Source: Cyanobacteriota bacterium
GTDB taxonomy: Bacteria; Cyanobacteriota; Cyanobacteriia; Elainellales; Elainellaceae
Length of the DNA: 64,000 nucleotides
Reading direction: 5' to 3'
Assembly (NCBI GenBank): GCA_046719575.1
Contig: JBDNCP010000002.1
Coordinates: forward strand, 2,689-66,688
Every line of letters starts with the position of its first letter. Within the stretch, counting starts at the first letter, position 1. The notes beneath the pieces are model-generated. The model saw only the letters and a list, made by a program, of their open reading frames with translations. It was not told where the DNA came from and made no database searches. Both the position numbers and the translations under genes were made by a program. Positions 53,604-64,000 of this stretch are shown here, in pieces.

Positions 53604-54437
53604 ATGCTCACTCCCATCACCGAAGACGTTTTTAAGCAACTGATTCCTGCGGTCGCCACAGCACAGCAGTATCGCTACTATTGGGGCAAGTTTCAGGATG
53701 TGCTGAGTCGTGTGTTGATTTCGGTCGTGGGGGCGCTTTTGGGATTGGTGCTGCGGGCAATTTTGCCGCCCAATTTCTGGTTTGAAATTTTAGAATTCAG
53801 CGTGGCGATCATCGCAGGGTTGTACTGGCTATGGGGGCCGGCTTATCAGGCTGGTCGCCGCAATGCCGAATATCGCCGCTATCCCTATAGTGGCTTCTGG
53901 CAGGGCGAAGTGTCTGATGTCTACATTACGGAAGATCTGATCGGCACAGAGGAGCGGGTCAACAAGCAGGGCGAACTGATGATTGTGGAGAACCGGGAAC
54001 GACGACTAAACCTGGAGTTAGCCGATGAGGTGGGCTACCTAGGCAAGGTCAAGGTGCCGCTGATGCGCGACCATCGGGTCATTCGTCCGGGCGATCGCGC
54101 TCAACTCGTGGTCATTTCAAACCGCCCCGACCTCGACCCAATTTTGGAGCTATCCGACGTGTACATGGCGGACTATGGGCTGTGGGTCAGCGACTATCCC
54201 TACTTGAACCGGGAGGTGTTTGCAGAAGTCAGCAAGCAGTTGGGCCGCCGCACCAGCGAACCCGGCCCAAAGCGCCGCCGCGATCGCACCAGCGAGCCTG
54301 CTTACGACCCTGGTTTCTACGAAGCACCGCCGCGCCGCCCTGAGCGCCCTATCCGTCCCCGCCAAGCTGACAATCTGCGCCCGGAGCCGCCCCGCAGCCG
54401 CCCACCCAAACGCCGCACGCCCCGTCGCGAGTTTTGA
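53604..54437 (+). CDS. Cyanobacterial membrane protein of unknown function with an R/P-rich tail
   Basis: Two TM helices, ATAQQYRYYWG, ENRERRLNLEL and LWVSDYPYL motifs. Confidence 0.8.
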   Translation: MLTPITEDVFKQLIPAVATAQQYRYYWGKFQDVLSRVLISVVGALLGLVLRAILPPNFWFEILEFSVAIIAGLYWLWGPAYQAGRRNAEYRRYPYSGFWQGEVSDVYITEDLIGTEERVNKQGELMIVENRERRLNLELADEVGYLGKVKVPLMRDHRVIRPGDRAQLVVISNRPDLDPILELSDVYMADYGLWVSDYPYLNREVFAEVSKQLGRRTSEPGPKRRRDRTSEPAYDPGFYEAPPRRPERPIRPRQADNLRPEPPRSRPPKRRTPRREF

Positions 54438-54835: not shown

Positions 54836-54978
54836 TCGCACCTCCAGGACAGTCCGGGCTGCCTTCAAAAACTCTACAATCCTCTATAGTAAGTTACGAA
54901 CTAGCATAGTTGCCAGTGTTTTTTCAGTCTGTCCGAGTCAATTTTATTCTACGCAGACTATTTTCTAAGATTCTTCTT

Positions 54979-55776
54979 ATGCAGCAGGCGATCGCCATTC
55001 TGGTGTTTGATATTGACGGCGTAATCCGCGACGTGGGCAATTCCTATCGCCGTGCCCTAGCGGACACCGTCGAAGCCTTTACCGACGGTCGCTTTCGTCC
55101 CTCCCAGGCAGACATTGACCAGCTCAAAGCCGAAGGGCTTTGGAACAACGACTGGGAAGCGTCCCAAGAACTGATTTATCGCTACTACGAACAGCAGGGA
55201 ACGGGGCGATCGCAGCTTGGGCTGTCCTATGAAAAGGTTGTGGATTTCTTTCAGCGGCGCTATCGCGGGGCGATTCTAGACGATCCTGATCAGTGGGATG
55301 GCTACATCACGCAGGAGCCGCTGCTGGTCGATGCCGCCCATTTGCTTGATCTGCAAGCCAGCGCCCTTCCCTGGGGGTTCTTTAGCGGAGCAACGCGGGG
55401 ATCGGCGACCTACGTGTTGCAGCGCCGCTTGGGACTGCCCGACCCGATTCTGATTGCGATGGAAGATGCCCCCGGAAAGCCTAACCCGACGGGGTTGTTG
55501 CAAACCGTGGCGCAGATTGAAGCTCGGTTTAAGTTGTCTGGTCCGCTTCCAGTGGTGTATGTAGGCGACACCGTGGCGGATATGCAGACGGTGACAGCGG
55601 CAAAAGACGTGGCGGGCGATCGCCCCTGGATTGGCATTGGCGTGCTGCCGCCCCACGCCCAATCCCCTGCTGACTACGCCGCCGCCTACACCGATCAGCT
55701 CCACACCGCAGGCGCAGTCCGCGTGATAACCACGGTTCGAGAGCTAACGCCGTCCTACCTTGCCGAATTGCTCTAG
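54979..55776 (+). CDS. HAD-superfamily hydrolase (TIGR01548-like)
   Basis: FDIDGVIRDV, WNNDWEAS, GKPNPTGL and YVGDTVAD motifs. Confidence 0.9.
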   Translation: MQQAIAILVFDIDGVIRDVGNSYRRALADTVEAFTDGRFRPSQADIDQLKAEGLWNNDWEASQELIYRYYEQQGTGRSQLGLSYEKVVDFFQRRYRGAILDDPDQWDGYITQEPLLVDAAHLLDLQASALPWGFFSGATRGSATYVLQRRLGLPDPILIAMEDAPGKPNPTGLLQTVAQIEARFKLSGPLPVVYVGDTVADMQTVTAAKDVAGDRPWIGIGVLPPHAQSPADYAAAYTDQLHTAGAVRVITTVRELTPSYLAELL

Positions 55777-55778
55777 AC

Positions 55779-57065
55779 TCACGGGCATCTGGGATAGAGG
55801 GACTGGGTGGGTGTGCGGCGGGGACTCAGCACCAGCACCGAATCCATGAACTGTTTCAACTCTGCCTGCCGGGTCGATGAACTCACGCCTGCTTGCAGAT
55901 GTCGCAGCACCAGTTGGATAAAGCGGCGACTGGCGGCGATCGCTGCACGGGTCGGCGTGCTGCTCAGGTTAATATAATCGCGTGGATCGCCGAAGAAAAT
56001 CCGGCCATTGGGCTGACGCATGGGCATAACCCGATGCTCCTGCGGATAAGATAACCCCCCCAGTCCAAAATAGCGGATAAACCGGATGGCTCCCGCGCCG
56101 CCGTTCTCGCGCTCTGTATGGGCCGGAGAATAGGAATCCTGAATCAGGTGCAGCGCCTCGCCCAGCCATTCAAAGGCAGCCTCGCGGGTGGGAGCAGTCA
56201 TGATCCGCTGATAGATGGCGACAAGCTGCTGCCGTGCTTCGGCGAGGGACTCTTCTAGTGGTTGGCACTTGTGGCGGCGCAGCATGTGGCGGCGCTGTTG
56301 CGATGGCTTGAAGTGGTTTGTGATTTTCTCCAGATCCACTCGGCGCACGCCCCGATTCATAGCCCCCAGCTCAGCAGGAGTAATGGGCAGCCCCTTGGCA
56401 GCCTCCCGATTCAGAGTTTCATGTCCCGGCGGAATGCGGCGCTTAATGTCTTCTACCACAAACGGATCGGCTTCGCGCTCGGCGGCCATTTCTTGCAGCG
56501 TTTCTAGATACTGCTGCTGAATTCGACGATCAAATGAGCGTGGCGCAGCCGATTCAAATTTGGATTCACGCTCGAATTCAAACTCAGATTCAAACTCAGA
56601 TTCAAATCCCTGTTCAAATTCCCATTCAAATTCCAATGCCAGTTCCCATTCTGCTTCGCGCTGTTTCGGTGGAGACACTTGCACAACCGGAGGCAGCTTG
56701 TCTCCCGGATTCAGCGTCGTCACCAGCACAATCCGGTTGCCGTTCTCGCCGCCGGGCCGATAGAAAATCGGCACCCCCCGCACCACCGTCACGCGGGTAT
56801 TGTAGCCAGGACGGGTTTGACGATAGTGTTTGGCGGCGCGAAACTCGCGGACGAAGGTGCGCGGATCGAACCGCATACCACCAGAGGCAACCCGTTGCAA
56901 AAAGCGCTGGGTGAAATGGATCGTGGGCAAAAAGCCCTGGCGCTTGAGATAGGCGGCAAACCGCTGAGCGATGCTGCGTCCGGCTTGCCCCCGGCGGCCA
57001 AATTCATCTTCAAACTCCGGAGCGGCGGAGCCGTTCTGGAGCGCTTTAGTTGAAAACGAGTTCAT
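55779..57065 (-). CDS. Two-domain hypothetical protein: small basic N-terminal domain, E/F-rich linker, Zn-PLC/S1-P1-like C-terminal domain
   Basis: TIHFTQRFLQR; linker EWELALEFEWEFEQGFESEFESEFEFERES; then GHETL, VD, H and LGEALHLIQDSYSPAH. The ORF is well supported; domain calls are from motifs only. Confidence 0.7.
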   Translation of the reverse strand: MNSFSTKALQNGSAAPEFEDEFGRRGQAGRSIAQRFAAYLKRQGFLPTIHFTQRFLQRVASGGMRFDPRTFVREFRAAKHYRQTRPGYNTRVTVVRGVPIFYRPGGENGNRIVLVTTLNPGDKLPPVVQVSPPKQREAEWELALEFEWEFEQGFESEFESEFEFERESKFESAAPRSFDRRIQQQYLETLQEMAAEREADPFVVEDIKRRIPPGHETLNREAAKGLPITPAELGAMNRGVRRVDLEKITNHFKPSQQRRHMLRRHKCQPLEESLAEARQQLVAIYQRIMTAPTREAAFEWLGEALHLIQDSYSPAHTERENGGAGAIRFIRYFGLGGLSYPQEHRVMPMRQPNGRIFFGDPRDYINLSSTPTRAAIAASRRFIQLVLRHLQAGVSSSTRQAELKQFMDSVLVLSPRRTPTQSLYPRCP

Positions 57066-57091
57066 AGTTATCGAGGGGGAATGGGGTTGAT

Positions 57092-57200
57092 TTTGAATTT
57101 TAGGCTGGCGATTTTGGCTGGGTATTTTGGATCGGCGATTTTGGATTGCGATCGCTCAGTCTGTTTCAATCCACAATCCAAAATCTAGAATCCAAAATCG
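57092..57200. repeat. Degenerate ATTTTGG arrays facing CCAAAAT arrays around a HIP1 site
   Basis: gattttggctgg...attttggatcggcgattttggattgcgatcgc...aatccaaaatctagaatccaaaatcg. Confidence 0.7.
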
Positions 57201-57246
57201 AATCTCCAGCCCGATCGAAGCGGCGCATGACAAGGGCGATCGCCCT

Positions 57247-58371
57247 TTACCCTTGCCCTGCTCTGAGCGGCGTGACGTTGCCGTTGCGGCTGGCGTTGAT
57301 GGGGACGACGCGCTGGGTGTGCCCGCGAAACGCAATGCCCAGCACCTCGGCACTGGTCAGCCATTCTTCGGACACGTCGGCGATTTCGCGCAGCAGGGCT
57401 TCAAATTCCGCCCGCGAGCTGTTGAGGATATACTTTTGCGCCAGCCAGCGAATGATTGATCGCCCGGAGGTGGCCATGCGGTGTCGCTGGGAGGCGTTGA
57501 CCTGCTTGTTGAAGTAGCGCAGCATCACTTCTTCGGCCACGTCCCAGGCGTTGTCTGCGCCAAACAGCTTGCGAACGTCCTCGGCTCCCAGAATGCGGAA
57601 GGCTTCGTCCAGCAGTTGCAGCGTCTCAATGCGAAATACGTTAACGTGTCCGTAAGAATTCCACTTTAAGTTATTTCGTAGATCCAGCCCAGCGCGGCGC
57701 ACGGTGGCGATGCTGCCAAAGCTGGGATCGTAGGCGCGTTCGCGGATCACGTCGGAAATCCGCTTGTCGCGCCAGAAGGCGGCGACGCTGTTGATAAACT
57801 GCGTGAACATGCCGTGGAATTGGGCGTTTGGCTTGGCGCTGGGCATGGGCGGCGTGGTGGTGTAGCCAAACACGCGGCGGTAGGTCTGCATTCGGTTGCG
57901 TTCGGCATAGCGGAGGATGCTGCGGCGATCAAACCGATATAGCCCGTAAGCGCCTTCACCCGTCGAAAGGCGCACTGCGCCCGCGTCAAACAGTTCTTGC
58001 AGCTTGCGGATGGCGCGGAAGATGCCGACGGTTTCCATCTGGTAGAGATAGTAAAGATCGGCGACGGATAAGATGCGATCGCTCGCTACTTGTTCGTCAT
58101 AGTCTTCCACACCTTGCGGTAGGCGCGTTTCGTCGATGCCTTTGGCAGCATCCTTACCCAAGCCGATCAAGTCGGCCAGTCCGCCGTCGGCAGGCACGGG
58201 CGCAGCGGCATTGGCGGCGATCGCCTGCGCCAACATATCTTCAATCCGCTGGGTCAGCGCGTCCGCAAGCTGGGGATTTTGAATCAACTGCGGGCCGAGT
58301 TGATCGACCAGCGTTTCTTTTAGCGCGGCAATGCGGTCGAGTAAACTTTGGTTTTCTCCGGTGGTGGTCAT
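57247..58371 (-). CDS. Hypothetical protein (374 aa), mostly helical
   Basis: Long ORF with GAGGAG RBS and host-like codon usage; no family I recognise. Confidence 0.85.
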   Translation of the reverse strand: MTTTGENQSLLDRIAALKETLVDQLGPQLIQNPQLADALTQRIEDMLAQAIAANAAAPVPADGGLADLIGLGKDAAKGIDETRLPQGVEDYDEQVASDRILSVADLYYLYQMETVGIFRAIRKLQELFDAGAVRLSTGEGAYGLYRFDRRSILRYAERNRMQTYRRVFGYTTTPPMPSAKPNAQFHGMFTQFINSVAAFWRDKRISDVIRERAYDPSFGSIATVRRAGLDLRNNLKWNSYGHVNVFRIETLQLLDEAFRILGAEDVRKLFGADNAWDVAEEVMLRYFNKQVNASQRHRMATSGRSIIRWLAQKYILNSSRAEFEALLREIADVSEEWLTSAEVLGIAFRGHTQRVVPINASRNGNVTPLRAGQG

Positions 58372-58531
58372 GGGAATTTCTCCTCGAACAAGGGCTTAGT
58401 CAGGGGTTAGTGGGTTAAGGATTGCGTTTTGCCAGCCTAGATTTTGTAGGTTTTGGCTGTCGCGATCGACTTGGCTGGCGGTTTATTCTTACTGAGCAAT
58501 TCACCATTGCGTGTGCTGTGGTCGGAGATCA

Positions 58532-60241
58532 TCAATCGAGATCGTCGGGCGTGTCGCCAGAGGGCAATGTTACTTGCTCCGCCAGTTGGCGCACCTGATA
58601 AAGCTGGTAAGCCAAATCACGCAGCGCCCGAATCACGCCTTCGCGCCGGAACGCAGCATTGGGAATTGGGGTGTAGGTAGCAGCTTGGGTCAGCACCATG
58701 AGGCGATCGCTCGTCTCAGAAATCACCCGAATACCCAGCTTGCCGCCCGATTTTGCCAATATCGGCCCTTCCTCACTGGCGAATCGCCAGACCCAGTTCA
58801 GCAGCCCTTCCACGCTCATCGAATCTCCCAATTTAGCCGTTTCCGCAACTGGGTATCCAGTGCCATCCGGCAGTGGAAATGCAGGGCGGGGAACACCACA
58901 AGGCACTGCCATGTCCTTCTCTTCGGCCCTAGCGCGAGTGAAGTCGATGTAGACCGACAGCCGCTCCTCTGGCCCCAGGAAGAATAGCTCCATGATCCGG
59001 TAGACCTCCTGCACCGACTCGGCCACCACCGCCAGCGCCTGCGATAGCCGCACGAGCTGCGTGCCAATGTAGGCCCCAGCACTGGAATGCTGAGTATGCT
59101 TGTAGTCCACCCAACTCCGCCGCAGCGATTGCAAATAGTCTTTCAGCGTCAGGAAGTTGCTGTAGTTTTGCTCCTCTTCGACGGTGTTAATCTGTCCGCG
59201 TACCAGCCCAAAATATTCCGCCAGTTTCTTGAGCTGTCCGTCTGGGCGCTGATTGCTGCTGTCTAGGTCTTCGCCCAGCAACAGTTGGAACAAGTTATCC
59301 ACCCGCAAGATTCGCGGGCCGCCGCGTGCGCCCAGCTCTGCCAAAAGCTCCTGCATCTCGGTGCGAATGATAGAGCGGGTGGCTTCCATGTTTTCGCGGT
59401 CGGCGGATGGTTTCAGCGGGGTCAGTCCATTCAGCAACTGAATGCCGTCTTGAATTGCCGTTTTTGCCCGGTGATAGAGGCTGGCCTGCGCTCCGGTGAT
59501 GCCGCCGCCTAGGTCGGAGGCTCGGATGCTGACCGACTGCGGATTCCAGTCGTAGACCGTGCGCCCATCGACCTGGCGGGCGGTGAAGGTTTGCGTCAGC
59601 GTACTCACCAAAGTTTTGGGGTTATCCGTCCGCTGGGTATGCCCCAAAATGCTGCCCAGAGCGCTTTCCACTATGCCTTGCAGGTCGTCGCCAGTGGCAG
59701 GAGTGGAAACGGAAGTCATCCTGCCCGTCCGCTGGATTTGATCCAGACTGGGCAGCACATCTACGACTTGCAACTGTCCGGGTTGGTCTTTGGCGGGCTG
59801 AGCAGGAGGACGCTTGGATTGCTCAGGTTTCGACACTTCTAGCGCCACCAGTTCAATGGTGTAGGCCGTTGCCTGCCCGTCTCGCTTGACCGTATAGGGG
59901 GCAGGAACCTGTCCAACATCTTTAGCATCGGGCTTGTTGGGATCAGCCTTAGAAAACTGCTCTAGGGGAAAACTAGGCTGAACCTCCGTTTCTCCCAAAA
60001 ATTCACTGTCCCGAAAGAGTTTGAAATACACATCGGGTTCTGGTTCTGTTTCTCCCGGATCTTGGCGAAAGTCTTCCTTTGTAAAGGAGATTTCAAAGTA
60101 GCCCTGGGTATCTGTATGAGAAACACCGATGAGATCATCATATTGTCGATCTTTGTCGTGAAGTTCTACGCGGATGCGAGCTTCATATTGGCTTGGGTTT
60201 TTGATCACACGCCCGCGAAGCGTGTACCTGTCTCGTTTCAT
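58532..60241 (-). CDS. Hypothetical protein (569 aa) with an N-terminal transthyretin/prealbumin-like domain
   Basis: VELHDKD..YDDLIG..HTDTQGYFEISF...DF...E.EPDVYFKL pattern, then a P/Q linker and a helical body; AAGGAG RBS; starts 6 bp after the upstream stop. Confidence 0.8.
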   Translation of the reverse strand: MKRDRYTLRGRVIKNPSQYEARIRVELHDKDRQYDDLIGVSHTDTQGYFEISFTKEDFRQDPGETEPEPDVYFKLFRDSEFLGETEVQPSFPLEQFSKADPNKPDAKDVGQVPAPYTVKRDGQATAYTIELVALEVSKPEQSKRPPAQPAKDQPGQLQVVDVLPSLDQIQRTGRMTSVSTPATGDDLQGIVESALGSILGHTQRTDNPKTLVSTLTQTFTARQVDGRTVYDWNPQSVSIRASDLGGGITGAQASLYHRAKTAIQDGIQLLNGLTPLKPSADRENMEATRSIIRTEMQELLAELGARGGPRILRVDNLFQLLLGEDLDSSNQRPDGQLKKLAEYFGLVRGQINTVEEEQNYSNFLTLKDYLQSLRRSWVDYKHTQHSSAGAYIGTQLVRLSQALAVVAESVQEVYRIMELFFLGPEERLSVYIDFTRARAEEKDMAVPCGVPRPAFPLPDGTGYPVAETAKLGDSMSVEGLLNWVWRFASEEGPILAKSGGKLGIRVISETSDRLMVLTQAATYTPIPNAAFRREGVIRALRDLAYQLYQVRQLAEQVTLPSGDTPDDLD

Positions 60242-60247
60242 GCTGCG

Positions 60248-61624
60248 CTATCTCCTTGCTAAAGCTTTATAGAAGTTTTCAGTAATAAGTCCCGGCGCGG
60301 CCAGCCGTCGATCTAGCGCGTGGCGAGAGGCGCAGATCAGGAAGCGTTCGGGAATGATGCCCGGATCGTTGCCTTTGGCCAGCCGCTGCCCCGCTTCTTC
60401 GATGATTTGCTGGTGGTGCGGTTTGAAGCCGGTGACCTCTGCCAGCGATCGCCCGCCCAGTTCGCCATAAGGCGTGTAGCAAATCGTATCGACGACCAGC
60501 TTGTGGGCCCGATCGAAGGTTTGCAGCACGGCGGGTGGAATCGTACCCGCACGCGGATTGGGATACAGGCGCTTCCAGATGCGGTTGTAATAGTCCGCCA
60601 TTTGCGGAAAGCCCATCCGCCGCAATAGCTCCGTGCTGATGAACACGCGCAGGTAGGGCGTGGGATGGGGCGCACCGGGGTGAAAGAAGAGGGTGCTTTG
60701 GGGCGATCGCGAGGCAATGTCCATCAGCGAGGCGACGATGTAGGGGCCGCCCAGCAGCAGCCCCGACATATCCGCAAAGGTTTCGCTGTGCCATTTTGTC
60801 CACACGGCTGCCACATCCGGGGATAACCCCGCCTTCAGCAACCGATGGGCGATCGCCTTGGGCAGGGTTTGCCGCAGCCCCAGATCGGTCTGCAAGTTGT
60901 GGGCGACTTCGTGCAAAATCGCCCCCAGCGTCCAGGGATTCACCAGGCGGTGATAGGGCAGTTGGATCAGCGGAAACGGATTGAGCTGCTGGCTCAGCTT
61001 GGTCAGGGGAATGCCGCGCCGGAAGGTGGCGGGCGAAAACCCCGTCTTGACATAGGAGAAGGGCGGCGGAGCCGGGATCGACTTCGCCTTGCCCAGGCCC
61101 ATGTACACGTCCTGATAGCAGTCAAGCGCGATGCGATCGCACCCCAACAGCCAGGGCGCAAACTGGCTCTGCCGCTGCCCAAATAGCTCAAAGTAAAAGT
61201 CCCAGATTTGCTCGATCTTCCGCACCAGATCATGAGCCTGATCTTTGCGGGCGATCATCTGTTGCAGATGAGCCGTAGCGGGCTGGGCGATCGCCGCCTG
61301 AGTGCTGCCAGACACGGTTTTGGAGACACCCTGGAGGTGCGATCGCAATCGAGCAATAAGCTGGTTTACCGCGTCGATATGGGCATCGCTGGGGCTGGCC
61401 GCATCGGAGCCAAACTCACCCTGCCGGAAGGGGCGCAGCGCCGCTACATGGCGTGCCACGTTAATCGCCTGCGCCCGCAGCCAGGGGTCGAGGTTGGGCG
61501 GCTCCACAAAGCGGGCGATCGCCTGAGGCTCAGGCATGGTTTCCTGATATAGCTCGGCAAGCGCTAGCCGTGTTGCTCGATACGGGTCTATCCCGTTCTT
61601 TGATCCGTTCGTAAACCCATTCAT
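60248..61624 (-). CDS. Putative gluzincin-type zinc metallopeptidase (458 aa)
   Basis: ILHEVAH (aa 238-242), ETFAD about 40 aa later, then GGP and HP.PYLR; GGGAG RBS. Confidence 0.75.
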   Translation of the reverse strand: MNGFTNGSKNGIDPYRATRLALAELYQETMPEPQAIARFVEPPNLDPWLRAQAINVARHVAALRPFRQGEFGSDAASPSDAHIDAVNQLIARLRSHLQGVSKTVSGSTQAAIAQPATAHLQQMIARKDQAHDLVRKIEQIWDFYFELFGQRQSQFAPWLLGCDRIALDCYQDVYMGLGKAKSIPAPPPFSYVKTGFSPATFRRGIPLTKLSQQLNPFPLIQLPYHRLVNPWTLGAILHEVAHNLQTDLGLRQTLPKAIAHRLLKAGLSPDVAAVWTKWHSETFADMSGLLLGGPYIVASLMDIASRSPQSTLFFHPGAPHPTPYLRVFISTELLRRMGFPQMADYYNRIWKRLYPNPRAGTIPPAVLQTFDRAHKLVVDTICYTPYGELGGRSLAEVTGFKPHHQQIIEEAGQRLAKGNDPGIIPERFLICASRHALDRRLAAPGLITENFYKALARR

Positions 61625-61690
61625 GCCACAACTCCCGATTGCATTCCAATCAACTGCACGCGGATATCCTTAAACCCGCAAGGCTTTTGC

Positions 61691-62524
61691 CTATACGAAG
61701 GCCCGCTTGCGTGCGCTGCAACTGCACTGGCGGCTGTGAATCTGGCGCGATCGCTTCATCACAGCAGAGGCGCGGCGCGGATTGCCCAACACCTGCGCCA
61801 CATTGCCAGCCACCGTCCGCGCTGCTACGCGAGCGTTTACGGGCTGTCCTTTAGCGACGCGCTGCGCCAGGGTTGCCATGCTGCTGCGGGCGATCGTGGG
61901 GAAGGTGCGAACCAGCGGACGGGTCTGAGGGTTTTGGAGCAGCGCCCGACCGGCCTGAGCCAGAGGACGAATAACCTGGGGAACCACGCGAGAGATGACG
62001 GGTGCGGCTGCGCTGAGGCCCCGCGCCACCATTGGAATCAATGCGCCAATGAAGGCTTCGGCTTCGGCTTCGCTCTGGCTGTTGGCCGCCATGTGGGCCA
62101 GATGCTCAGCCATCACCTCATACTCGCTGGCCGGCGCGGTTTCAAATTCGGGCAGCACTTCAGGATGCTGCTCATATTCATACTCAAACTCGCCATCGCC
62201 CCCAAAGGCGCTGCCCAATCCCCGCAGCAGATTGCCAATAAAGGGATCGCCTTCGTATTCGCCTTCCAGTTCAAACTCGTTCAGGGGTGTTTCATACTCC
62301 ATCTCAAATTCGCGCTGGCCCCGGCGGCGACGGCGACGACGAAATAGCCCGCCGATTGCTTGAATGGCCATCGGTGCAGCCGCTTTAAGAATAGGAGCTA
62401 GCAAGGGCAAAAACTCTTCGCTCTCGTATTCGTACTCGTATGCGCGATCGCTTTCACCCAGAACGGCTGATTCAAATTCTGATTCCAGTTCTCGATCCAG
62501 GGTTTCAAGTTCGTACTGATACAT
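61691..62524 (-). CDS. Acidic/basic block protein B (277 aa) with E/Y/F-rich spacers and amphipathic segments
   Basis: AAGGAG RBS. Contains EYESEEFLPLLAPILK, R7, EYEGDPFIG and SEAEAEAFIG. The C-terminal half aligns with the gene at 62606. Confidence 0.88.
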   Translation of the reverse strand: MYQYELETLDRELESEFESAVLGESDRAYEYEYESEEFLPLLAPILKAAAPMAIQAIGGLFRRRRRRRGQREFEMEYETPLNEFELEGEYEGDPFIGNLLRGLGSAFGGDGEFEYEYEQHPEVLPEFETAPASEYEVMAEHLAHMAANSQSEAEAEAFIGALIPMVARGLSAAAPVISRVVPQVIRPLAQAGRALLQNPQTRPLVRTFPTIARSSMATLAQRVAKGQPVNARVAARTVAGNVAQVLGNPRRASAVMKRSRQIHSRQCSCSARKRAFV

Positions 62525-62605
62525 GAGTTAGGGTCTCCTTTTGCAGTGATGTTTGGTTGAAAGTCAAAAGTTGAAAATCGAAAATAGAACAAGACTCCAG
62601 TGCGA

Positions 62606-63481
62606 CTAGCCCCGTACTTTCTTGCGGGCAACTGGAGCAGGTTGGTTCACTTTCTGCGCGACTTTGGCAGAATTGGCGACAATTCGAGCAGCGGTCATGG
62701 GATTTTTGAGCGCTTTGCGGGTTTGGGCGGCCATCACCTGAGCCACGACCGGGCGGGTAATTGGCTTGCCCTGCGCGGCTTTCTGAGTCAACACTTGCCC
62801 CGTCCGCATAGCGACCGTCGGCAAAATTCGCACCAGCGGTCGAGTCGTCGGGTTTTGGCGTAGCCCCCGCGTCAGTTGGGCGCTGGCCTTAACGATCGCC
62901 GGAATTTGCTTTTGCACCGCAGCCGCTTTGGTCGGCAACACGCGAGTCACAGCAGCCCCCGCAAAGGCCTCGGCTTCGGCTTCGTTTTGGGCTTTGGCAG
63001 CAGCGCCGGCCAGCGCTTCGGCAACGGCTTCCATCTGCGGCGTGGCGACAGACTCAAACTCGCCCGCCCATTCCCCTTCAAACTCCATCTGTCCGGCCGT
63101 TTCATATTCAAATTCGTACTCGCTCTCGCGCATCATCTGTCCCAGCGCTGCGCCAAGCTGTGGCCCGCCAATGGCATTGCCGATCAGACGAGTGGCATGG
63201 GGAATCACTTTCGGTAGGATGGGTTTGAGCCGCCCAGCAAGACGGCGCACCGTACTCAAAAAGGCTTCACTTTCGTATTCGCCCTCATACTCACTTTCAT
63301 ATTCGCCTTCGTATTCACCTTCGCCCAGTCCGAGGGCATTCATTGCGCCGCCGATGAGTCCACCCAAGAATTCTTCGCCTTCGTATTCATGCTGAACTTC
63401 GTATTCATTTTGCAGGTCATATTCAAATTCGCTTTCAAACTCATTCGTGAGTTCCTGTTGCAGAGTTTCACCGTCCAACAT
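62606..63481 (-). CDS. Acidic/basic block protein A (291 aa), paralogue of the gene at 61691
   Basis: GGAG RBS. Contains EYEGEEFLGG, EYESEAFLST and NEAEAEAFAG. Shares QNP.TRPLVR..PT...G.P...NP with the paralogue. Confidence 0.88.
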   Translation of the reverse strand: MLDGETLQQELTNEFESEFEYDLQNEYEVQHEYEGEEFLGGLIGGAMNALGLGEGEYEGEYESEYEGEYESEAFLSTVRRLAGRLKPILPKVIPHATRLIGNAIGGPQLGAALGQMMRESEYEFEYETAGQMEFEGEWAGEFESVATPQMEAVAEALAGAAAKAQNEAEAEAFAGAAVTRVLPTKAAAVQKQIPAIVKASAQLTRGLRQNPTTRPLVRILPTVAMRTGQVLTQKAAQGKPITRPVVAQVMAAQTRKALKNPMTAARIVANSAKVAQKVNQPAPVARKKVRG

Positions 63482-63866
63482 TGCATCACTCCAATCGAAA
63501 TCAGTTCATCTCTAGCTATAACCCTGCAAAAACAAGTTGAATAGTCGCATTTTTAGATGACATCAGTTTGGATTCATTCAAATGAATGTCATTGATTTGT
63601 ATGACATCAAAAAATCCGCGGTTTCTACACAAAACTTCGCACAGGAGAGCAGGCGTAAAGATTGCCTACTGTTGCACTGTCAGTACCCGCTGGGGGAATG
63701 GCGATCGCCCTGTGAAATCGCTTAAATAAGAGCTATTCGACCAAAAGGGCAAGTCACGTTGAGCAACTTTGGTGTCTTGATAGAGGTCGGCTTATCTCAA
63801 AGATGGAGGCTAAGTTTCAGGGAATCTACATCAGTTCTGAGATTCTTTTCAGGCTTTTAAATAGAC

Positions 63867-64000
63867 ATGATTGATACCCAGAAAAGCAATAAACATGATT
63901 CAGATTCCTTTGATCTGAATCGACTTGAGCGGGACGTATTGACTCGCGTCCTCAGCCAGACAGCCGTATTTTGGAAGCCCATCAAGGTCTTTCAGGACGC
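63867..64000 (+). CDS. 5' end of an ORF divergent from the cluster, truncated by the window edge
   Basis: MIDTQKSNKHDSDSFDLNRLERDVLTRVLSQTAVFWKPIKVFQD is open to the window end. Confidence 0.45.
   Translation, partial: MIDTQKSNKHDSDSFDLNRLERDVLTRVLSQTAVFWKPIKVFQD

Follow-up and report, generated by a model that had tools for sequence, protein, structure and literature searches.

In bacterial gasdermin operons, a membrane-damaging protein is made in the cytoplasm as a pro-form beside its own protease, and cleavage removes the inhibitory part. In zymogen cascades, of which the maturation of V8 protease by aureolysin is an example, and in multi-copy antimicrobial-peptide precursors with acidic spacers, such as animal antimicrobial-peptide polyproteins, anionic pro-pieces block the enzyme or neutralise the cationic peptides until a metalloprotease cuts before a hydrophobic residue. 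Encapsulin-type cargo loading uses a short terminal peptide that is common to unrelated enzymes and is encoded beside a conserved partner. In holin-endolysin lysis and lysis-dependent (type 10) secretion, signal-less peptidoglycan hydrolases with peptidoglycan-binding domains need the membrane lesion made by a partner. Finally, polymorphic toxin systems with a dedicated processing peptidase have been described (Zhang et al. 2012, PMC3482391), among them the S8-PTS (Li, Tan & Zhang 2022, PMC9424270). Here, we describe a six-gene cassette found in a stretch of 64,000 nucleotides (the window) from a member of the Elainellaceae (Cyanobacteriota; contig JBDNCP010000002.1, positions 2,689 to 66,688 of the forward strand). 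The cassette appears to follow a pro-toxin or polymorphic-effector logic that is built entirely from undescribed protein families.

The six open reading frames (ORFs), labelled G1 to G6, occupy 55779-63481 of the window and are all co-oriented on the minus strand (Table 1). Intergenic gaps from G1 to G6 measure 81, 66, 6, 160 and 181 bp, and GGAG-type ribosome-binding sites precede G1 to G5, G6 being the exception. G1 and G2, called A-type and B-type below, encode paralogues (35% identity over 244 aa, E 1e-28), G3 a putative peptidase, G4 and G5 two large core proteins and G6 a cargo protein whose stop codon lies 2 bp from that of a convergent HAD hydrolase gene. Thirteen HIP1 sites fall within the genes, G1 alone having none, or 15 if two in the G5-G6 gap are included. 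Because the HIP1 density (1.9/kb in the cluster, 2.0/kb in the genome) and the GC content (0.577 versus 0.557) match those of the genome, the cluster is no recent arrival, and long residence fits. A hydropathy scan revealed neither signal peptides nor transmembrane segments in the six proteins, the 19-residue Kyte-Doolittle mean peaking at 1.64, in G2 (G1, 0.87). On all of these points the analysis bears out the original prediction, which had been made from the DNA letters alone and had described the six co-oriented genes and their spacing, five ribosome-binding sites, a paralogous pair at the head, the closely spaced convergent stop codons, HIP1 sites in most genes with long residence, and no evident signal peptides.

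These six genes are one copy of a conserved, so far undescribed cassette that is present in at least three phyla. Neighbourhoods were counted over 89 related loci, with the loci that have room for a given component as the denominator. The shared order is GerE (a LuxR-type regulator), A, B, G3, in some loci a small gene X, G4, G5 and a variable cargo, and it recurs in Scytonema, three metagenome or metagenome-assembled genome (MAG) contigs, Paraburkholderia sp. PGU19 and 80 metagenome loci. G4 lies upstream of G5 in 56/57 loci and G3 upstream of G5 in 39/40; every one of 31 loci has at least one A/B gene and 26 have two, with the A-then-B order kept in 22/28. Named hosts belong to the Cyanobacteriota (many), the Chloroflexota (Chloroflexales and Roseiflexaceae MAGs) and the Pseudomonadota (Paraburkholderia), and the metagenome loci stem for the most part from soil, peat and rhizosphere, with hot-spring contigs also represented. 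Within the cyanobacteria the cassette was found in 5 of 301 genomes and 4 of 133 genera. This rarity, together with a G5 identity of 57-80% between phyla, argues for horizontal spread under strong constraint. The Paraburkholderia copy, on a 2.38-Mb replicon (L091, 1529-20605), is complete, comprising A, B, G3, X, G4, G5, an M20 peptidase, an Amidohydro_2 protein and GerE; it has WD40-repeat genes on either side, of which the downstream one encodes a DUF4062-NB-ARC STAND protein, and is also bordered by a transposase of insertion sequence (IS) type. In the cyanobacterial genome studied here the cassette is single-copy.

Searches with all six proteins against Pfam, NCBIfam, PADLOC and PHROGs returned nothing above threshold, G1 having no match in any of these libraries, and sequence and profile searches of the PDB with G3, G4, G5, G6 and the N-terminal (G6N) and C-terminal parts of G6 gave chance matches only. 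No description of the cassette was found in the literature searched. The proposals that the genes form a genuinely co-inherited module, that the peptidase and the two unknown proteins co-occur across phyla with variable cargo bearing Glu-aromatic linkers, and that the whole matches no named system are supported by the homology and neighbourhood analyses. A phage origin was considered and rejected, as cassette relatives were absent from the viral contigs of IMG/VR and PHROGs gave no match.

What ties G1, G2 and G6 together is a low-complexity tag of Glu-aromatic-Glu units (E-Phi-E). In a scan of 38,264 ORFs from the 5.07-Mb genome, the motif E[FYW]E occurred 12 times in G1, 10 times in G2 and 6 times in G6, and at most 4 times in any other ORF, the one with 4 being 5,848 aa long; counts of six or more are confined to these three, and no further tagged protein was found in the genome. 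As had been noticed at the outset, the tracts end in E-x-E-x-F (EGEEF, ESEAF, EAEAF, ESEEF) or E-x-D-P-F (EGDPF in G2, EADPF in G6). They are encoded by tandem DNA repeats of 6, 12 or 24 bp, as in the acid tract of G1 (12/24-bp repeats at 63266-63323). In A/B proteins the acid tracts alternate with Gly/Ala-rich or cationic segments and lead to a conserved basic C-terminal domain of 120 aa with an isoelectric point (pI) of 12 and no acidic residue, which in G1 spans aa 173-291. Across 226 tracts of 75 A/B proteins, the junction consensus is E, then (A)F, then L/F/I. The A protein of the Paraburkholderia copy departs from this composition, with many E-Phi-E units replaced by E-L-H-E-L repeats.

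G3 appears to be a gluzincin-type metallopeptidase with an HExxH...ExxxD arrangement. Among 40 G3 relatives, with identities down to 23%, no substitution is seen at H238, E239, H242 or D285, E281 is kept in at least 90%, and the family comprises 1,511 representative clusters. Neither Pfam nor the PDB gave a match for G3 and 39 relatives, apart from one stray Zn_peptidase hit at E 0.005, and G3 is therefore not assignable to a described peptidase family by Pfam or by solved structure. Kinship with DUF4157, the metallopeptidase of extracellular contractile injection systems, was suggested by an HExxHxxQ look-alike, yet no profile match supported it.

The cargo protein G6 gives the tag and the peptidase a possible rationale. 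Its C-terminal family conserves H215, D244, H260, H306, D310, H316 and E343/H344. Mature enzymes of the zinc-dependent phospholipase C (PLC) family use their N-terminal residue as a zinc ligand. When G6 is counted from F202 as residue 1, its residues pair in order with the ligands of the Bacillus cereus phosphatidylcholine-preferring enzyme (PC-PLC; PMC10420013) as F1/Trp1, H14/His14, D43/Asp55, H59/His69, H105/His118, D109/Asp122, H115/His128 and E142 or H143/His142, with no acidic residue at +4 to pair with Glu146. G6 thus has the ordered His/Asp ligand set of the zinc-PLC family, and the proposed ligand role of F202 presupposes cleavage at EREADP↓F202. Because the N-terminal residue is a ligand in this family, such a cut would complete the active site as well as strip off the acid tract. 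Of 26 relatives of the G6 C-terminal domain, 9 match Pfam Zn_dep_PLPC (PF00882) below threshold, collinearly from profile position 2; G6 itself matches only VWA7_N (E 0.01-0.02), and its C-terminal domain has no sequence or profile match in the PDB. The original prediction that the peptidase cuts the acidic linkers gains from F202 a specific rationale, the cleavage itself being predicted.

G6 had also been described as a two-domain toxin-like protein. The N-terminal part proves to be a constant module that relatives join to many effector domains, so that the protein is not simply two toxins in one. In relatives, G6N is fused to PG_binding_1/3, VanY, Amidase_2, OmpA, GIY-YIG, Ntox5, DUF4056, DUF2380 or a PLC-like domain, and some of these proteins have endolysin-type architectures (Amidase_2 with PG_binding_1, VanY with PG_binding). 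Of 64 genes downstream of G5, 25 encode an N-terminal E-Phi-E tag, compared with 3 of 259 ORFs in the flanks. Tagged cargo includes Trypsin with OmpA, Extensin-like_C (a LAS peptidase) with OmpA and a hydrolase, OmpA, and a B protein fused to Peptidase_M15_3. In two trypsin-like cargo proteins the tag stands directly before the I/V-I-G start, and members of the trypsin-like family require a precisely made N-terminus, as in the V8 protease matured by aureolysin. The cargo, as judged from its domains, is of polymorphic-effector architecture with a strong peptidoglycan and membrane theme: peptidoglycan hydrolases or binders, proteases, nucleases and a zinc-PLC-like enzyme make up most of it.

Two further features of the cargo region recur in related loci. 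A second N-terminal cargo module (L010, 11173-12015; L019, 7956-8952) has no Pfam match of its own, carries the motif G-I-P-G-x-D-N-R-W-F-P-S...P-H-Y-H...S-G-H-F-F-Y-G, and is fused to OmpA or to an A/B-type basic tail. A soil and peat clade (L021-L090; for example L046, 12534-14872) has an M20-family peptidase of about 480 aa and an Amidohydro_2 protein of about 290 aa between G5 and GerE in about 27 loci, and some of the Amidohydro_2 partners end in EEEYKL or ESEYHL.

G4 and G5, with about 155 and more than 3,291 homologues retrieved, respectively, all labelled hypothetical, form the core of the cassette. An AlphaFold2 (AF2) model of G4, with a predicted local distance difference test (pLDDT) score of 77, has an N-terminal head that resembles, as modelled, the beta-sandwiches of C2, transthyretin and Big domains; Foldseek searches of the PDB and BFVD returned generic beta-sandwich matches for this head and no convincing fold match for the helical core of about 400 aa (template modelling (TM) score at most 0.14). 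In relatives the extra domain of G4 is swapped (PG_binding_1, CarboxypepD_reg, TIG, SdrD_B), stands at either end or is absent, and some of the modules form CarboxypepD_reg/SdrD_B arrays or TIG repeats. G5 is the most conserved core protein, with 100 invariant alignment columns of which 17 are Arg. It is predicted to be all-helical (model pLDDT 68) and has no Pfam, PDB or fold match. Two candidate relationships were rejected: that of G5 with tripartite pore formers (Foldseek E > 2, TM about 0.14) and that of G4 with G5 as paralogues (hhalign probability 0.2%).

Distant G5-like proteins (23-25% identity, E 1e-11 to 1e-19) are encoded in another uncharacterised cassette, on a plasmid of Tolypothrix sp. 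PCC 7712 (L092, 8110-9957) and on pBPJTT of Burkholderia pyrrocinia (L093, 8245-10050 and 13875-14870). This second cassette holds an S8 peptidase, a peptidoglycan-binding protein or a 1,254-aa amidase, and several paralogous proteins with Pro/Ala-rich tails, to which the Burkholderia copy adds a sigma-54 activator; E-Phi-E tags are absent from both loci. By its alignments G5 belongs to a wider superfamily, in which the pairing of a protease, cell-wall enzymes and a G5-like core recurs.

Taken together, these observations lead us to put an even chance on the cassette being a protease-licensed pro-effector system against the bacterial cell envelope, transcriptionally regulated and self-contained. 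In such a system all proteins would be made in the cytoplasm as inert pro-forms, in which the polyanionic E-Phi-E tracts would mask the adjacent cationic or hydrophobic segments of A/B, block the enzymes and mark the cut sites. Upon induction or a trigger, G3 would cut each tract end before a hydrophobic residue (E↓F, A↓F, P↓F), a pattern that would correspond to a thermolysin-like P1' preference. Cleavage of G1 and G2 would release F-L/I-initiated Gly/Ala-rich or cationic peptides and the 120-aa polycationic tail, leading to membrane disturbance, and cleavage of G6 would release a PLC/P1-like enzyme whose new N-terminus, F202, would take the N-terminal zinc-ligand position. Once A/B fragments had disturbed the membranes, the cargo could reach peptidoglycan or lipid. 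The Arg-rich G5 and G4, the latter with its swappable beta-sandwich or peptidoglycan-binding module, would probably read the tag and hold or aim the set, and the GerE protein would control expression of the cassette. As for its use within this pro-effector model, release by lysis of some producer cells and action on neighbouring bacteria falls a little short of an even chance and is favoured by the polymorphic cargo and the adhesin-like G4 modules. Pure self-lysis, which we hold more tentatively, is the next option and is favoured by the lack of an export signal and of an immunity gene and by the STAND-gene neighbourhood in Paraburkholderia.

Comparison with the systems introduced above shows partial likeness to each. 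As in polymorphic toxin systems, one N-terminal module (G6N) stays constant while the C-terminal toxin or hydrolase domains behind it vary widely, Ntox5 and GIY-YIG among them; effectors and peptidase are encoded in strict linkage, and the distribution is patchy and transfer-prone. Unlike those systems, the six proteins have no signal peptide or known secretion-pathway domain by hydropathy and Pfam; no immunity gene adjoins G6, which is followed directly by the convergent HAD gene, and related loci have no recurrent small gene after the cargo; the peptidase is an unclassified gluzincin rather than S8, HINT or PrsW; and A, B, G4, G5 and the E-Phi-E tag have no counterpart. The model shares with gasdermin operons the pairing of a cytoplasmic pro-form with its own protease. 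However, no protein matches a Pfam gasdermin, the G4 and G5 models are helical without a match to a pore-former (TM at most 0.17), the protease is a metallopeptidase and not caspase-like or trypsin-like, and the cassette has multi-copy acid spacers, extra enzymatic cargo and the two large core proteins.

The signal-less peptidoglycan hydrolases of related loci recall holin-endolysin and type 10 systems, whereas A/B lack transmembrane helices, phage relatives are absent from PHROGs and IMG/VR, the cassette adds a protease and tags, and the cargo in the window is PLC-like and not an endolysin. With the zinc-PLC, P1/S1 nuclease and Het-C enzymes G6 shares the order and spacing of its His/Asp ligands and an aromatic residue 13 positions before the first His; it differs in having Phe instead of Trp as first residue and in lacking the acidic ligand at +4 after the last His. 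The proposed role of the acid tracts parallels that of the anionic pro-pieces of zymogens and antimicrobial-peptide precursors, which are, however, secreted and unrelated in sequence, whereas the cassette is cytoplasmic and gathers its parts, extra core proteins included, into a single bacterial operon. Finally, as in encapsulin loading, a terminal tag is borne by otherwise unrelated enzymes beside a conserved partner, but G5 is all-alpha and G4 a beta-sandwich with a helical core, without an HK97-like or bacterial microcompartment shell fold and without a capsid-like match in the PDB or BFVD, and the E-Phi-E tag is polyanionic, repetitive and also internal.

Several results weigh against the pro-effector model. 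PADLOC-DB 2.0 returned 0 families for the six proteins at E <= 1, and the defence role that had been suggested for the cluster is for this reason not supported. The window holds no immunity gene and no export route, which leaves the way to the target unexplained. The best PF00882 match among the G6 relatives (E 4.9e-4) reaches 20.5 bits against a cut-off of 26.8. The strongest amphipathic window of G2, ISRVVPQVIRPLAQAGRA, has a hydrophobic moment of 0.77 (z about 2.9), and it alone stands out, the G1 segments not rising above shuffles (z about 1.2); because amphipathicity is only weakly above shuffles, A/B can be read as antimicrobial-peptide precursors only conditionally. Neither G4 nor G5, although conserved more than any other part, has an assigned activity or a fold match, both models having been compared with the PDB and that of G4 also with BFVD. 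Lastly, G5 ends in R-E-Phi-E-Phi-E-Phi in 45 of 87 relatives, none of them cyanobacterial (for example AREFEFEV, AREYEYEY and QREYEFEY in homologues from L004, L010 and L026-L090); since a tag at the C-terminus of G5 cannot serve as a pro-peptide, it looks more like a signal for docking.

This last observation keeps alive the suggestion, made in the original prediction as an alternative, that the tags are assembly or cargo signals for a body made of G4 and G5, about half of the non-cyanobacterial G5 proteins ending in one. In its full form, which we consider improbable, E-Phi-E would be an address and G5 with G4 a multimeric carrier or protein body on which A/B and cargo dock by their tags, G3 would serve as a maturation protease only, and the released complex would bind targets through the variable domain of G4. 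The placement of tags at cargo N-termini, inside A/B, at the extreme C-terminus of G5 and at the ends of some amidohydrolase partners speaks for a carrier, as do the invariant arginines of G5, its cross-phylum identity, which suits a structural assembly, and the swappable adhesin-like or peptidoglycan-binding modules of G4. So does X, a small helical protein of about 180 aa encoded between the peptidase and G4 outside the cyanobacteria, whose presence loosely correlates with a tagged G5 (18/10/3/11); cyanobacterial G5 proteins, including that of the window, lack the tail, and X is lacking there as well. Yet the models of G4 and G5 resemble no shell, capsid, tube or toxin-complex protein, neither viral contigs nor PHROGs hold relatives, and a carrier leaves unexplained why the tract of G6 ends exactly at the predicted catalytic N-terminus. 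We are likewise doubtful, though less so, of a broader proposal, by which G4 and G5, with X where it occurs, would be a new protein-handling machine that reads a Glu-aromatic-Glu address on signal-less proteins and packages, exports or aims swappable envelope-degrading enzymes and membrane-active peptides.

Programmed self-lysis or abortive infection, to which as an explanation in its own right we assign an equally low probability as to the carrier, would have the protease triggered in the producer, with A/B fragments acting like holins and the signal-less endolysin-like, lipase and nuclease cargo destroying the cell. The cytoplasmic location of all parts, an operon with its own protease and no immunity gene, the endolysin-type architectures among relatives, the patchy occurrence in cyanobacterial genomes and the position of the Paraburkholderia copy between DUF4062-NB-ARC-WD40 STAND genes and an IS are all in keeping with such a role. 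The island context comes from one genome only, however, and in the genome studied here the cluster has ameliorated and lies among housekeeping genes; PADLOC finds no match and there is no recognisable sensor among the parts, and GerE control, several redundant effectors and long adhesin-like G4 arrays would be unusual for abortive infection.

Far less probable is a cluster of the kind that makes ribosomally synthesised and post-translationally modified peptides, with A/B as multi-core precursors, G3 as leader or spacer protease, G4, G5 and X in tailoring or export and GerE as pathway regulator: the repetitive, precursor-like build of A/B with its conserved junctions, the dedicated protease and LuxR-type regulator, and the M20 peptidase and amidohydrolase of non-cyanobacterial cassettes would suit it, but the same tracts occur on large folded enzymes (peptidoglycan hydrolases, proteases and the PLC-like G6), A/B carry the conserved 120-aa basic domain, and Pfam and NCBIfam reveal no known enzyme or transporter domain of such pathways. 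A housekeeping operon for cell-wall remodelling or peptide recycling, without a role in conflict, is about as improbable, for although the peptidoglycan-themed cargo, the M20 and amidohydrolase genes of many loci and the apparent long residence in this genome agree with it, only about 2% of the cyanobacterial genomes sampled have the cassette, its cargo is of polymorphic-toxin type (Ntox5, GIY-YIG, PLC-like), and enzymes that need the periplasm lack export signals.

The cassette thus presents five conserved, tightly linked protein families without a counterpart in Pfam, NCBIfam, PADLOC, PHROGs or the PDB. If the pro-effector model is true, G3 would define a new family of peptidases whose substrates bear a simple and recognisable signal, and the cassette would show a new bacterial means of storing lytic enzymes and cationic peptides in the producer's own cytoplasm without harm, and possibly also of releasing or aiming them in a new way. 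The predicted cleavage at EREADP↓F202, by which the catalytic N-terminus of a PLC-like enzyme would be made, is directly testable. The pair of tag and peptidase could constitute a portable protease-activated switch, and the cargo sets are a catalogue of peptidoglycan- and membrane-degrading enzymes. Should the G4/G5 machine prove real, cyanobacteria, Chloroflexota, Burkholderiaceae and many soil bacteria would share a delivery or secretion route that has so far gone unrecognised.

Table 1. Features of the cassette and its surroundings in the window (arrows mark predicted cut sites)
Feature	Window coordinates	Strand	Protein	Remarks
Convergent HAD hydrolase gene	54910-55776			Pfam Hydrolase, E 1.5e-11
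G6	55779-57065	-	428 aa	Cargo protein
G6, C-terminal domain			aa 202-428	Zinc-PLC/P1/Het-C-like
G6, junction	56460-56480			EREADP↓F202
G6, E-Phi-E linker	56553-56657		aa 137-171	
G6N, basic domain			aa ~24-136	pI 11.9
G6, tag	57000-57017		aa 17-22	EFEDEF
G5-G6 spacer	57066-57246	-		Tandem repeats folding into a long imperfect hairpin
G5	57247-58371	-	374 aa	Core protein
G4	58532-60241	-	569 aa	Core protein
G4, helical core	58574-59686	-	aa ~186-556	AF2 model
G4, N-terminal beta-sandwich	59822-60241	-	aa 1-140	AF2 model
G3	60248-61624	-	458 aa	Putative metallopeptidase
G3, ETFAD motif	60770-60784	-	aa 281-285	
G3, HEVAH motif	60899-60913	-	aa 238-242	
G2, B-type block protein	61691-62524	-	277 aa	Junctions ESEE↓F38, EGDP↓F95, EAEA↓F158; R7 run; basic C-terminal domain aa 158-277
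G1, A-type block protein	62606-63481	-	291 aa	Junctions EGEE↓F38, ESEA↓F74, EAEA↓F173; three acid tracts, each before a hydrophobic or cationic segment
Operon promoter/leader region	63482-63866	-		Between G1 and the divergent GerE gene
GerE/LuxR-type regulator gene, 5' part	63867-64000	+	140 aa	Continues to ~64289 beyond the window; ORF at L001 8556-8978

Just beyond the HAD gene, a plus-strand ORF of 277 aa (53604-54437) without a Pfam match encodes a protein whose C-terminal tail is rich in Pro and Arg; the comparisons made show no relation to the cassette. Within the cluster, internal terminator and promoter counts did not exceed those of shuffles, and an Rfam scan returned nothing real.

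Upstream of G1, a divergent regulator gene, which was absent from the original prediction, encodes a C-terminal GerE helix-turn-helix (PF00196, E 1e-17, aa 78-129). A GerE gene adjoins the cassette in 27 of 35 related loci and is either divergent or, at the far end, convergent. In the intervening region of the window, ATGACAT(CA) occurs three times at 63557-63609, twice in direct and once in inverted orientation, 75-125 bp upstream of G1, and related loci L006 and L008 have two copies of ATGTCAT 54-99 bp upstream of the first gene. The triple motif is a candidate operator.

Between G5 and G6, Tandem Repeats Finder (TRF) reports rows at 57097-57152 and 57168-57199, with 13-bp (x4.2) and 7-bp (x4.6) units, and the RNA of the spacer has a predicted fold of -54.5 kcal/mol (z -3.0). 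The 5' arm of the hairpin is partly conserved in L006, and the hairpin could be a processing, stability or attenuation element.

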